The position numbers and the translations under genes are program-made. From contig CBDCJH010000002.1 in NCBI GenBank assembly GCA_965217775.1, forward strand, positions 3,424,001 through 3,488,000: DNA of 64,000 nt, in the 5' to 3' direction. This stretch comes from Acidobacteriota bacterium (lineage in GTDB: Bacteria > Acidobacteriota > UBA6911 > RPQK01 > JAJDTT01). Below, one piece after another: positions 38,282 to 42,099 of the stretch (positions are counted from its first letter, which is position 1; every line of letters starts with the position of its first letter). Below the pieces are notes generated by a model. That model worked only from the letters and a program-made list of their open reading frames with translations. It searched no databases and was not told the DNA's origin.

Positions 38282-38527
38282 TTGCCCGTCGATTTCGCTC
38301 CCAGTCTACTACGACGCCGCGCCCATCTGCCAGCCGGACGGAGCCACCGGCGGCAGGAGATCGGCAACTGCGGGAACCACCGTTCGGCTTCGATGCAACC
38401 GCTATCGGTGCCGCTCATTTGCCAGTCGATGTCCACAGCGGATCTTGCCGACTGCCGTTAACTTCGAAGGTAGTCTGTACGACTTGTCTGATTGTTGAAG
38501 ACCTCTTCTCGTTTGAAGAGTTCGTAT

Positions 38528-38685
38528 CAGTCCGTGGTGAAAGTCGCGCGAGCACCGAGACCGTTCCTGCGCCCGCCGGACAAGGCGCGATGAGGGAGCA
38601 TACCGGGAGTATGTGACCGAGTCGCAACGCAGTCCGCCGGGATGCAGGGACGGTCGAATGCCGTGACGACTTTTGCCACGGGCTG
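38528..38685 (-). mobile_element. 158-bp palindromic MITE, copy 2
   Basis: Same TIRs as copy 1; TSD GTAT at 38524-38527 and 38686-38689. Confidence 0.92.
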
Positions 38686-38909
38686 GTATGCTTCGGGGAG
38701 GAAAATCCGGGCGGATATGATCTCCGCCATGGGGATTACAACTCGAAAATCCTCATACGCCAATCCGGATGACCCTTCAAGGGATTTCCAGATCACAGGA
38801 GCATACGTGGTGGTGATTTCCAACTCCTGCTTGTCTTTATCGCGAAAGCCGCCAGCCATTGGTACGAGTTCGATGTCACCCTCACCCTGGCTTCCGATTC
38901 CGCTCTTGA

Positions 38910-39067
38910 CAGTCCGTGGTGAAAGTCCCGCGAGCACCGAGACCGTTCCTGCGCCCGCCGGACAAGGCGCGATTCGGGTGCATACCGGGAGTATGTGCCC
39001 GAATCGCAACGCCGTCCGCCGGGATGCAGGGACGGTCGAATGCCGTGATGACTTTTGCCACGGGCTG
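38910..39067 (-). mobile_element. 158-bp palindromic MITE, copy 3
   Basis: Same TIRs; TSD TTGA at 38906-38909 and 39068-39071. Confidence 0.92.
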
Positions 39068-39515
39068 TTGAGGGCAAAGCCAATGTAGACCTTCCTGCTA
39101 TTCAGGGCGATCTCAACCAGCTTCTGATCCTCGATAGATTCCGCGACCAGTAGCTCGATGAGGTCTCCATCTCTTTCCGCTGCACGTCGAGCCGCCTTTT
39201 CTTCGTTGTAGAAACGGTTGCCGGCAAACGGTAGCGCGATTCCTAAAAAGGCACTCAGAAAAATGGCCGTAGAAGAGTAAGGGATTGAATCGTACGACTT
39301 CCACGCCAAGTCTATCCAGGGCAGAAAGTAGTTCAGAGGAAGAACGACCAAGTGTGCAATAGCCGCCAGGATGCCGCCGGAAACCGTGGCCCGGAAGAAG
39401 ACATGGTAACCGGAATCACGCAGAGCGTCGTAACGTGTGAAGTGGAGATGGGTCAGAAACCAGTATCCACCAAGAGTCGAGATGAGAAACAGGCCAAGAC
39501 CCAAGGGAAACAGTT

Positions 39516-40759
39516 GGGGATTATATACGTAAGTGCCGAGAATTCAGGCTGATGGGTTACAATTCCGACCATGAAAGGCCACGCAACTATCCAGTGCAGA
39601 GCCAAGCTGTCCAAGGGTGGAATCCGGCGGTTGGACGGGGTGAGGTCCATCCTGAATCGGCTGTACAACGCTGCGCTGGAGGAACGCAGGACGGCCTGGG
39701 AATCCGAGCAACGCGGCGTGACCCTGTACGATCAGATGAAGGGGTTGACCTCCCGGAGGAAGGACGATCCGGAGGGGCTCGGGTCGGTGGCGGTCAAGGC
39801 GGAGCGTGGGATGTTGATGCGGTTGGACCGGGCCTTCAAGGCGTTCTTCCGTCGCTGCAAGGTGGGGGAGAAGCCGGGGTATCCTCGATTCCGGCCCATT
39901 GCGAGGATGGAGACCATCGACGTCGTCGACCCCAAAGCGACCCTGGTGAAGAAGCGCGCTCGGGGCTACGCCATCCGGCCCAAGGGCTTCCCGACGATCC
40001 GGATCTTTCCGTCCCGGCCGTTGCCGGACGGATGCCCGTTGAAAGCGTTGCGGATTGTCCGCAAGCCGAACCGGGTGTATGTGGACCTGACCTACGAGGT
40101 GGAGAAGCCGCCGCTACCGAAATGCGAGTCTTCGGTAGGGATCGACCTGGGCGTCCGCAAGCGAGCGGTGCTGTCCACGGGTGAGAGGATCGAACGGAAT
40201 AGACGGGACTGGGCGGGGATCCGAAAGCAGCAGAGAAAGGTCTCCAGGTGCAAGAAGATTTCCAAGACCAGACGGAAGCGGATCGTACAGCTATCTCGGC
40301 TCCGTCACCGGGAATCGGTCCGAAACCGTAATGCCTGCCATCGTCTCTCCAGCAGGATCATTCGTGAGCATGGTCTGATCGCTGTGGAGAAGCTGAACAT
40401 CCAAGGGATGGTAACGAAGGGCTCGAAGAAGAAGGGGCTGAATCGAGAAATAATGACGCAATCCTGGGGGCTTCTGCGGAATCAACTCCAGTACAAGGCA
40501 GAATGGGCCGGTCGGGAGTTCGTAGAAGTGAATCCCGCATATACATCGCAGGACTGCCACCGGTGCGGCGCCCGCCACGATCCAGGGCGGAGCGAAACCT
40601 TCCGGTGCAGGGCCTGCGGACTTGGAATGGACAGGGACCACAATGCCGCCCTGAACATTCTCAGGGCTGGGGTTCTTGCCCTGGGCACCGGAACGTATCT
40701 CGTTGGGGAAAGCGTGGTGCCAGAACTGTATGCCAAGGGCACTTAGGTATATAAGCCCC
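39516..40759 (+). mobile_element. Non-autonomous TIR element (IS1595-like ends) carrying only tnpB
   Basis: TIR-L GGGGATTATATACGTAAGTGCC (39516-39537) and TIR-R GGCACTTAGGTATATAAGCCCC (40738-40759) match 20/22; TSD AAACAGTT at 39508-39515 and 40760-40767. Confidence 0.9.
39571..40746 (+). CDS. tnpB: RNA-guided endonuclease TnpB
   Basis: LYNAALEER, GYPRF, RuvC-I GIDLG, RuvC-II AVEKL, YTSQ-CxxC..CxxC zinc finger, RuvC-III DRDHNAALNI; TACAAT 7 nt upstream of the ATG. Confidence 0.93.
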   Translation: MKGHATIQCRAKLSKGGIRRLDGVRSILNRLYNAALEERRTAWESEQRGVTLYDQMKGLTSRRKDDPEGLGSVAVKAERGMLMRLDRAFKAFFRRCKVGEKPGYPRFRPIARMETIDVVDPKATLVKKRARGYAIRPKGFPTIRIFPSRPLPDGCPLKALRIVRKPNRVYVDLTYEVEKPPLPKCESSVGIDLGVRKRAVLSTGERIERNRRDWAGIRKQQRKVSRCKKISKTRRKRIVQLSRLRHRESVRNRNACHRLSSRIIREHGLIAVEKLNIQGMVTKGSKKKGLNREIMTQSWGLLRNQLQYKAEWAGREFVEVNPAYTSQDCHRCGARHDPGRSETFRCRACGLGMDRDHNAALNILRAGVLALGTGTYLVGESVVPELYAKGT

Positions 40760-40791
40760 AAACAGTTCCTGACGGGTGAACCCGCCGATCC

Positions 40792-40989
40792 TTACGGACG
40801 TTTTTTCGGAGGTCGGCCAGACGATTTTATTCCAAAGTCGAGTTTCGCCATCTGTTCGATGACTGCGCGCGCCCTTTTACTGCGGAGCAACTCATCTGCC
40901 TTGACGTACAGCCGGCCTTTTGGCGTCACGTACACGGGGGGACGCTCCCGCTCAGTTGACGGACGTTTTTTCGGCGACACATTCTTCAT
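40792..40989 (-). CDS. Small basic hypothetical protein, probably once co-transcribed with 38458..39504
   Basis: SD AAGGAG before ATG; stop lies ~35 nt upstream of the membrane-protein start in the reconstructed empty site. Confidence 0.55.
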   Translation of the reverse strand: MKNVSPKKRPSTERERPPVYVTPKGRLYVKADELLRSKRARAVIEQMAKLDFGIKSSGRPPKKRP

Positions 40990-41172
40990 GGTGTCTCCTT
41001 TACTTGTAACGCGTGGAACTCAGCATACACGACTATGTCGCTTCCGCATTTGGGGCGGACCATGCGCATCCGAGAGAAAAACGGGCAACAGAGGGAGGGC
41101 TCCGACATCACCAGGCGTCGAAGAGAGTGCATCCCCGGACCCGGTACGATACGGGATCTTGGCCCCGAACCG

Positions 41173-42099
41173 TCACCGTAACAGATAGGCCATGGCCAAG
41201 CCGACCTGGGCCATCACGGTCAGGAGATACATCTGCCGCCAACTGGGATGGTTCTCCCAGTCCATTGTCCCTTCCCGCTCCCGAGAGGACCGGACGAGCA
41301 GGAGGATGATGCGGCCGCCCCAACCGGCGAGAAACAGCCCCAGGCCGACCAGCAGCGACGGTTGTCCGGACAGGAGGCCGAAGACTGCGCCGGGGACGAT
41401 GGCCAGAAAGGGCAGGACGAAGAAAGGCGCAATGATCCGGATCGACCGGTGCACGCCATAGATGACGGGAAGCGTCCGGCAGCCGCCCCGGCGGTCCCCC
41501 TCCACGTCGGAGAAGTCCTTGGTGGTGACGGCCCCCAGGAAATAGACTCCCAGGATCGCACCGAGAACCCAGGGCTCCGGCTGCAGCACATGTTTCACGG
41601 TGGACCAACCGGCCACCGGGAGCAGCGTTCCCCGGACCACGGCGATGGTGAGATTGGCCCAGATGCCGCGGGACTTGGTCCGAATCGGAGGCACCGAGTA
41701 AAGAAAGGTTCCCAGGGTGCCTCCCAGAACGACGAGAAAGCACTGAAAATTGATCCAGACGGCCAGCAGCAGGGCGATGACCAGGAAGGCCAGACTGAGG
41801 CACCAGGCTTCCGGCTTGGAGATGCGGCCCGACGGCAGCAGGCGGCGAGGCTTGTTGATCCGGTCGATCTCCAGGTCGAAGATCTGGTTGAGTCCGTTGG
41901 AAAAGGCGTTCAGCGCGGCCGCCAGAACGGCTCCGGCCAAGATCCGCAGAAAGATTCCCTCGCTCCCCGGACTCCAGTCGGAAACCCCTTTCGGATCTGC
42001 AGAGAGTCCCATGAGGGCGCCGCAGACCATTCCCAGCGCCGGCACCAGCAGGGTGAAGGGACGAATGAACCGGAAGTAACGGACGATAGGTTCAGGCAT
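41173..42099 (-). CDS. UbiA-superfamily prenyltransferase (DGGGP/chlorophyll-synthase-like)
   Basis: IRPFT, NQIFDLEIDRINKP.R.LPSG, YSVPP, KDFSDVEGD. Confidence 0.85.
   Translation of the reverse strand: MPEPIVRYFRFIRPFTLLVPALGMVCGALMGLSADPKGVSDWSPGSEGIFLRILAGAVLAAALNAFSNGLNQIFDLEIDRINKPRRLLPSGRISKPEAWCLSLAFLVIALLLAVWINFQCFLVVLGGTLGTFLYSVPPIRTKSRGIWANLTIAVVRGTLLPVAGWSTVKHVLQPEPWVLGAILGVYFLGAVTTKDFSDVEGDRRGGCRTLPVIYGVHRSIRIIAPFFVLPFLAIVPGAVFGLLSGQPSLLVGLGLFLAGWGGRIILLLVRSSREREGTMDWENHPSWRQMYLLTVMAQVGLAMAYLLR

Follow-up and report, generated by a model that had tools for sequence, protein, structure and literature searches.

The window analysed here is a stretch of 64,000 nucleotides from the genome of an Acidobacteriota bacterium (assembly GCA_965217775.1, contig CBDCJH010000002.1, positions 3,424,001 to 3,488,000 of the forward strand), and within it positions 39516-40759 are occupied by a 1,244-bp element whose only gene is tnpB, coding for a predicted RNA-guided nuclease. 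The element is bounded by terminal inverted repeats (TIRs) of 22 bp, the left one (left end, 39516-39537, plus strand) beginning GGGGATTAT and the right one (right end, 40738-40759) lying on the minus strand; the two match at 20 of 22 positions when GGGGATTATATACGTAAGTGCC is compared with the reverse complement of GGCACTTAGGTATATAAGCCCC. Outside them stand the left (39508-39515) and right (40760-40767) copies of an 8-bp target site duplication (TSD), both reading AAACAGTT. In the 1.7-kb region this TIR pair is the longest inverted repeat, 24 nt at 92% (scored at that length because 2 nt of the TSD are included), and the runner-up measures 21 nt at 71%.

The gene, at 39571-40746, is the sole long open reading frame (ORF) on the plus strand of the element. 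It encodes 391 amino acids (aa), with the RuvC D/E/D motifs and the zinc-finger cysteines present, and its TAG stop (40744-40746) lies inside the right TIR, while the non-coding DNA between gene and termini amounts to 55 bp on the 5' side and 13 bp on the 3' side. The non-coding stretch behind the left TIR (39538-39570, plus strand) contains a -10-like TACAAT (39558-39563), 7 nt ahead of the ATG, from which a leaderless tnpB mRNA might conceivably start. The features that had been read from the letters in the original prediction stand, i.e., the coordinates of the unit, its TIRs and its perfect 8-bp repeat, as well as the single TnpB gene ending in the right TIR. Two further features, both on the plus strand, are taken up below: a conserved RNA structure at 40662-40759, which is a putative omegaRNA scaffold, and a target-derived G at 39507, immediately 5' of the left TSD copy, which is the candidate position of a target-adjacent motif (TAM).

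In the window's genome, which comprises 6.43 Mb in 2 contigs, the element is present in 12 copies at 94-100% identity, in one at ~85%, and as some fragments. Among the 13 full-length copies, 11 are flanked by perfect 8-bp TSDs that all differ from each other, one by a TSD matching at 7/8 positions, and one by none. Because there are 12 close copies and one at ~85%, with perfect and differing TSDs at 11 of the 13, the repeat-flanked unit is not a product of chance, and the further tnpB copies with different TSDs that had been anticipated are indeed in place. The empty allele, likewise anticipated, is found in two genomes of the same genus, G002 and G006, where the flanks of the window copy are joined over a single 8-mer and read CCCAAGGG-AAATAGTT-CCTGAC and CCCAAGGG-CAACAGTT-CCTGAC, respectively. 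In addition, a contig from a public RNA library joins 39510 to 40763, so that the empty form exists in nature, although the contig does not reveal the origin of that form. Insertion at the window locus occurred with duplication of 8 bp, and a dozen or more transpositions of the element have taken place within this genome.

Three individual copies deserve mention. The one that lacks a TSD, at C2:1186780-1188023, is flanked by unrelated terminal 8-mers, AATGGATT and AAACATAT, which suggests that it arose by recombination between two copies and hence marks a rearrangement or deletion. Two others have a disrupted tnpB: the copy at C2:4647309-4648714 measures 1,406 bp rather than the usual 1,244 bp, with extra DNA near its 3' end, and that at C2:2358592-2359856 measures 1,265 bp, its longest ORF being shortened to 297 aa.

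Regarding the protein, it carries the Pfam domains OrfB_IS605 (64.8 bits, cut-off 30.5) and Cas12f1-like_TNB (91.2 bits, cut-off 26.3), and its closest natural solved structure is ISDra2 TnpB (E = 1e-31, residues 31-375). The RuvC residues D192, E273, and D356 are invariant in an alignment of eight sequences. Within the genome, one disrupted copy lacks the third motif; the other 11 of the 12 close copies, as well as the diverged copy, show D/E/D in full, and 10 of the 12 combine the motifs with an intact 391-aa frame. The ratio of nonsynonymous to synonymous substitution rates (dN/dS) between tnpB subfamilies is 0.14-0.26; judged from the sequences, tnpB is evidently maintained by purifying selection inside such ends across several phyla. 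Some tnpB copies in the Caldilineaceae genome G041 lack the first CxxC of the zinc finger.

The distribution of the element was approached at two levels. Matches at the DNA level occur in six of 41 genomes (its own and those of the genus, family, and order), all of them within the genus, with five of eight same-genus relatives represented. At least five subfamilies, 72-97% identical in protein sequence, are represented in these relatives; they differ in their inner TIR sequences, all end in GGG(G)[AC]TTATA, and mostly retain intact 8-bp TSDs. At the protein level, a pattern scan of one genome per species, which is pattern-based and thus returns a sample rather than a census, recovered related TnpB proteins, 42-54% identical, from Bryobacterales, Binatia, Caldilineaceae (one genome having more than 25 tnpB copies), Dehalococcoidia, and SAR202. 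Of 30 such loci, 17 have clear TIRs of the same type and TSDs matching at 7/8 or better, and others have TIR pairs whose TSDs no longer match. IS605-type ends, whose presence around close homologues would have told against the proposed architecture, were seen at none of the 30. In the next tier, at 28-31% identity, none of 15 loci has a TIR pair, nor any exact inverted repeat of at least 11 nt. A phylogeny of the proteins sets the TIR-bearing relatives apart: in a quick IQ-TREE search, one long branch with a support of 100 in the Shimodaira-Hasegawa-like approximate likelihood ratio test (SH-aLRT) divides 22 rows of the TIR clade from 12 TIR-less rows. Three of the 22 are labelled by clade, namely L086, for which only the right end is available, L092, which shows no TIR, and L115, which has TIRs but lacks a TSD.

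The Caldilineaceae genome G041 also contains TIR pairs only 706 bp and 372 bp apart (e.g., C1:1488158-1488863, 1688892-1689597, and 2632336-2632707), which may be deletion derivatives without tnpB, and 1,445-bp variants of the element with an additional internal TIR-like copy ~170 bp from one end. A 2.13-kb TIR pair in the same genome was considered as an autonomous element and rejected, as a sulfatase gene there lies between the ends of separate elements.

The IS1595 family of insertion sequences is reportedly the subject of Siguier et al. 2009. A search of the window's genome with the Pfam model of the family transposase, PF12762 (DDE_Tnp_IS1595), gave nine matches over the cut-off, eight of them above 100 bits. 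Five belong to a 1,762-bp insertion sequence (IS) present in five copies, whose 26-bp TIRs (GGGGATTATATACGAAAGTGCCGAAA) are perfect, whose 8-bp TSDs all differ, and which occurs also in G006. Its TIR is identical to the left end of the tnpB element at 23 of 24 positions, and its transposase, of 316 aa, scores 132.6 bits against DDE_Tnp_IS1595 (cut-off 27) and 24.6 bits, slightly below the cut-off of 25.4, against Zn_ribbon_IS1595. The same genome, then, holds an IS1595-family element without tnpB, with nearly the same TIRs and the same TSD length, i.e., the autonomous transposase with matching ends that had been predicted. The IS1595 traits of an 8-bp TSD and TIRs starting with GG are present in both the tnpB elements and this IS. 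A finer placement in the ISNwi1 group, proposed at the outset, relies on an end consensus, ggnnatTAT, which we take to be that of the group, and the assignment of the present ends (GGGGATTAT) to it is presumptive.

The tnpB element itself encodes no transposase, and a tblastn search with the partner transposase found none beside tnpB within the ~1.5-kb flanks of up to 129 tnpB loci, matching only L019 and L020, which are the TIR-hit loci of the IS itself. A scan of the whole genome for the TIR, allowing up to five mismatches, returned 38 hits, of which 23 are ends of tnpB elements, 14 are ends of IS1595-family elements of three kinds, and one is lone and weak; no miniature inverted-repeat element (MITE) devoid of tnpB was among them. 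The IS1595 transposase would, very probably, bind the shared TIRs and mobilise the tnpB element in trans. The original prediction of a non-autonomous, DDE-type element with IS1595-type ends, carrying tnpB and moved in trans, is thereby supported by the copies, the partner IS, the empty sites, and the relatives.

In addition to its transposase gene, the autonomous IS (L023, at C2:445385-447146 of the window's genome) contains ~700 bp with a 110-aa ORF fragment matching Mrr_cat / NA-iREase1; this Mrr-like nuclease fragment is a passenger remnant.

The right end of the tnpB element carries a second layer of conservation. An alignment of the last 260 nt of 13 elements of the genus, folded with RNAalifold, gives a consensus of 63 pairs with 97.1% of cells paired and 16 pairs changed on both sides; among 500 shuffles, 0-1 reach the observed values, and sliding the partners by 1-3 columns lowers pairing to 37-48%. 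Helices 10-13 map to 40662-40759, and the best-supported stretch, 40662-40752, comprises two hairpins in which compensatory pairs of several types occur, followed by the conserved motif GAAC-N-GT and then by a short helix formed between GTATG and the TATAT of the right TIR. A covariance model built from the element's final 112 nt recovers the same arrangement, ending exactly on the last base of the element, in Bryobacterales (E = 7e-30, a match that is not independent because L087 is among the sequences of the model), Binatia (9e-11), Dehalococcoidia (2e-6), and Caldilineaceae (1e-5 to 5e-3), and finds nothing at E ≤ 1 in seven TIR-less loci. Contigs of public RNA libraries (Logan) cross the right end of other copies, linking tnpB to the flanking DNA.

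This structure over the 3' end of tnpB and the right TIR looks like an omegaRNA scaffold, and, because the two overlap, the right TIR would serve both the transposase and the RNA. There is good reason to think that an omegaRNA would derive from at least the final ~100 nt of the element, with a scaffold that overlaps the 3' end of tnpB and the right TIR, and, with similar confidence, that it would run out into the right TSD copy, which would provide the first guide bases, and the flank beyond, the two together forming the source of the guide.

The insertion sites themselves bear a signature, which is what is new here. With the sites oriented so that tnpB reads forward, a G directly precedes the left TSD copy at 39 of 40 (22/23 in the genus, 17/17 in other phyla), whereas at the mirror position a C follows the right TSD copy at only 12 of 40; autonomous IS1595 copies in the same genomes have G before the left TSD copy (-1) in 6/17 cases in the transposase orientation and 5/17 in the opposite one. 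The sites counted have TSDs matching at 7/8 or better and TIRs at 13/20 or better: within the genus, 4 of 27 were dropped for a TSD below 7/8 (L033, with no pair, stands outside the 27), 13 of 30 loci from other phyla were left out, and so were 18 of 35 in the IS control, which had no clean TIR/TSD pair. Fisher tests give p = 7e-7 in comparison with the IS in transposase orientation, 7e-10 when the two IS orientations are pooled, and 9e-11 in comparison with the mirror position, values that overstate independence because the elements are related, although sites within one genome are separate events. At the first TSD position A occurs in 35/40 tnpB elements as compared with 9/17 IS copies, and on the outer side conservation is limited to -1, positions -2, -3, and -6 to -4 being variable. 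At the window locus, G002 and G006 have the G corresponding to 39507 in their empty sites as well, which makes it part of the target.

Two insertion targets, at 39502-39515 (CAAGGG-AAACAGTT) and at C2:1514775-1514788 of the same genome (AAAGGG-AAACCGTT), are alike at 12 of 14 positions even though the sites are independent, and many target sites in the genus read GG-AAA, which hints at a longer preferred target than G-A alone.

The conserved G, and with it the A, might be no more than a target preference of the transposition machinery, e.g., of an asymmetric transpososome assembled on unequal subterminal sequences, TnpB being a passenger that is passive or acts otherwise. Such a preference would sit well with the AT fraction of the TSDs, 0.81-0.84 here, as the IS1595 family favours A/T-rich 8-mers and A/T-rich targets are likewise described for ISApl4 in the relevant part of PMC12561309, and most of the bases bordering the autonomous copies are G or C. 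However, the autonomous copies, having the same terminal bases, show G at -1 only at the low frequencies given above, and 8 of the 17 lack both the G at -1 and a C beyond the TSD. Moreover, the bias tracks the orientation of tnpB, and in two lineages (the subfamilies of Caldilineaceae and of G005) left and right TIR agree over at least their first ten terminal bases, which makes terminal asymmetry an unlikely cause. The transposase alone does not produce the G, and we regard a pure target preference as improbable, albeit worth some weight.

The alternative to a target preference is recognition by TnpB. In the unoccupied allele the G adjoins, on the 5' side, the 8-mer and right flank, that is, the would-be guide sequence of an RNA reading through the right end, and its position would coincide exactly with where a TAM must lie. 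With regard to the Fanzors of DDE transposons, the passages of a 2026 review devoted to them describe the 5' TSD as part of the TAM (PMC13565253). The sequence matching the guide in an unoccupied allele would plausibly be preceded by the left-flank base, G in nearly every case, and TnpB would probably use a very short TAM (G, perhaps GA). Since the last base of the right end is C, the occupied site would escape cutting. It is reasonable to suppose that a site which is empty, or from which the element has been precisely excised, would be cleaved by TnpB, that recombination with a copy still occupied would then restore or spread the element, and that persistence would be restricted to those insertions that had landed beside the motif. 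The broader proposal, which we advance tentatively, as the best reading of the signature and at somewhat less than even chances, is that this TnpB clade has adapted to a DDE transposon blind to TAM-adjacent targets, its TAM having shrunk to G (perhaps GA) on the 5' border of the duplicated 8-mer, and that homing, through conversion of unoccupied or excised sites, selects so strongly that almost every insertion to survive adjoins this base.

Taken as a whole, the element is in our opinion best explained, with considerable confidence, as a non-autonomous derivative of an IS1595-family DDE transposon whose sole cargo is a tnpB predicted to work and its guide-RNA scaffold. A number of observations pull in the opposite direction. 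Among the IS found here, a TIR match to an autonomous IS beyond ~13 nt is limited to subfamily A. G005 has four copies at 96-98% identity and a single PF12762 hit with an internal stop, and G041 has 87 TIR hits and only a transposase remnant of 24.7 bits; with no intact IS1595 transposase in these two assemblies, mobilisation in trans is not demonstrable there, and the copies they contain may either have no transposase left to move them or receive one from replicons missing in the assembly. At the RNA level, a scan of 38500-42000 against Rfam at E ≤ 1 returned no family, a scan of the plus strand of the element for consensus promoters and terminators found nothing, and the RNA-library data are contigs only, silent on ends, strand, and level, uninformative wherever no contig covers the element, and may contain DNA. 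As for the TAM, one of a single base would be unusual for TnpB, and the G could reflect something other than TAM recognition. Finally, a circular form is reported for ISApl4 in part of PMC12561309, and if IS1595 elements are copied out via a circle, donors are not emptied, so any benefit from TnpB must come from the conversion of unoccupied sister copies.

The genomes G005 and G041 also provide the opening for a different mover, be it a transposase that escaped recognition or TnpB itself in the role of an RNase-H-fold recombinase, given that each holds several similar copies with TSDs and no intact PF12762 gene in its assembly. Against this idea stand the 23/24 identity of the TIR with that of an IS1595-family IS in the window's genome, the same IS being found in G006, and the 8-bp TSDs and GG-initial TIRs, which are family traits according to the pertinent part of PMC8101967. 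In addition, the chromosomes of metagenome-assembled genomes may miss plasmids, the G005 copies are 2-3.6% diverged, in keeping with past activity, and TnpB is reported to be dispensable for transposition in the passages on this point in PMC13565253, all of which makes a mover outside the IS1595 family very unlikely. Least likely of all is a standard IS605/IS1341-type tnpB unit that entered a pre-existing MITE once and spread with it as a composite, TIRs and tnpB being functionally unconnected: solo tnpB genes of the IS1341 group are common in general, as the corresponding part of PMC13565253 notes, but the lack of any tnpB-less miniature element with these ends in the genome all but removes this scenario, and it is further contradicted by the 55 bp and 13 bp of non-coding DNA with the stop inside the TIR, by a conserved RNA structure that pairs with the TIR itself, and by an architecture that recurs across phyla at 42-54% protein identity and forms one side of a branch of the tree.

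To place the IS1595-type tnpB element among known systems, the prokaryotic carriers of TnpB need to be considered. IS200/IS605 and IS607 elements are described, in the sections of PMC13565253 that treat them, as having neither TIRs nor TSDs, and IS200/IS605 elements as inserting 3' of a 4-5-nt motif; the window element differs in having TIRs and, at 11 of 13 copies, perfect 8-bp TSDs, with a flanking motif of at most 1-2 nt. It resembles the IS1341 group and ISDra2 in the type of protein, with the OrfB_IS605 and TNB domains and a full-length match to ISDra2 TnpB, and in a guide-RNA scaffold, putative here, overlapping the 3' end of the gene. With the IS1595 family it shares, as far as the traits given in part of PMC8101967 go, the 8-bp TSD, the GG-initial TIRs, and A/T-rich targets, the partner encoding DDE_Tnp_IS1595; it departs from that family in having no transposase and in a right TIR that would double as part of an RNA scaffold.

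The association of TnpB with DDE transposons has precedents. Altae-Tran et al. (2023, PNAS) reported, in the main text of PMC10691335, six DDE-associated branches of TnpB (DDE-1 to DDE-6) with inverted terminal repeats and also solo TnpBs with matching ends, probably mobilised in trans. The DDE families named in connection with TnpB are IS630 in the portion of that paper concerned and ISL2, IS630, and IS1031 in that of the 2026 review (PMC13565253). Like those branches, the window tnpB lies between inverted terminal repeats with its 3' end no more than 250 bp (here 13 bp) away from the element's terminus, and, as for the solo TnpBs, movement in trans is proposed; unlike the branches, in which the transposase is beside tnpB, the partner here belongs to the IS1595 family, is itself free of tnpB, and is in cis at none of the tnpB loci examined. 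Fanzor1 in eukaryotic DDE transposons offers another parallel, to judge from the parts of PMC3627910 (Bao and Jurka 2013) and PMC13565253 that deal with it, because a TnpB-type nuclease lies inside an element with TIRs and TSDs and a 5'-junction motif serves as TAM (a candidate only in our case), whereas those elements are eukaryotic or viral, usually include the transposase, and have fixed short TSDs (TA, TTAA), and ours is prokaryotic, contains only tnpB, and has a variable 8-bp TSD. The pairing of TnpB with a TIR-bearing DDE element, which the original prediction left open as possibly undescribed, is thus not new in general, and neither is a solo TnpB moved in trans, both being in print in the main text of PMC10691335. 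The kind is known in outline, and the window element is a well-preserved variant of it, a tnpB-only cargo that parasitises a tnpB-less IS1595 element. Full-text literature searches, which did not cover the supplements of PMC10691335, found no paper on TnpB within IS1595-type ends, and we make no claim that the combination is absent from print.

The role that TnpB plays for transposons outside the IS605 and IS607 families is not settled; in the part of the 2026 review that addresses it (PMC13565253), DDE transposons are said to gain little from TnpB, and rigid TAMs are put forward as a possible reason for the rarity of the pairing in prokaryotes. The tnpB-IS1595 family is test material for this question: intact copies are numerous, the genome that holds them also encodes a transposase partner, relatives preserve empty sites, a putative scaffold is fused to the transposon end, and the insertion sites bear a one-base signature that is orientation-specific and goes beyond what the transposase alone yields. 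If the TAM has shrunk as proposed, these sites would be a natural read-out of TnpB homing on an element of the cut-and-paste type. If the G is the TAM, the protein would be a compact nuclease of about 390 aa with an almost unrestricted targeting range, and of interest for genome editing because of its small size and minimal TAM.

Some minor observations concern the surroundings of the insertion. Just left of the element lies a 158-nt repeat in two copies, 95% alike, at 38528-38685 and 38910-39067; a listed ORF of 325 aa (38527-39504) spans both and is unlikely to be a genuine gene along its full extent. At the junctions (39504-39515 and 40768-40775), a Shine-Dalgarno-like AGGA on the minus strand is parted by the insertion from the TTG start at 39504 of a downstream ORF; the insertion lies between the two and probably uncouples that gene from its translation signals. 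On the right, the insertion falls just past the stop (40792-40794) of a 65-aa minus-strand ORF, which is flanked by an exact 16-nt direct repeat (ACGGACGTTTTTTCGG) at 40794-40809 and 40959-40974.

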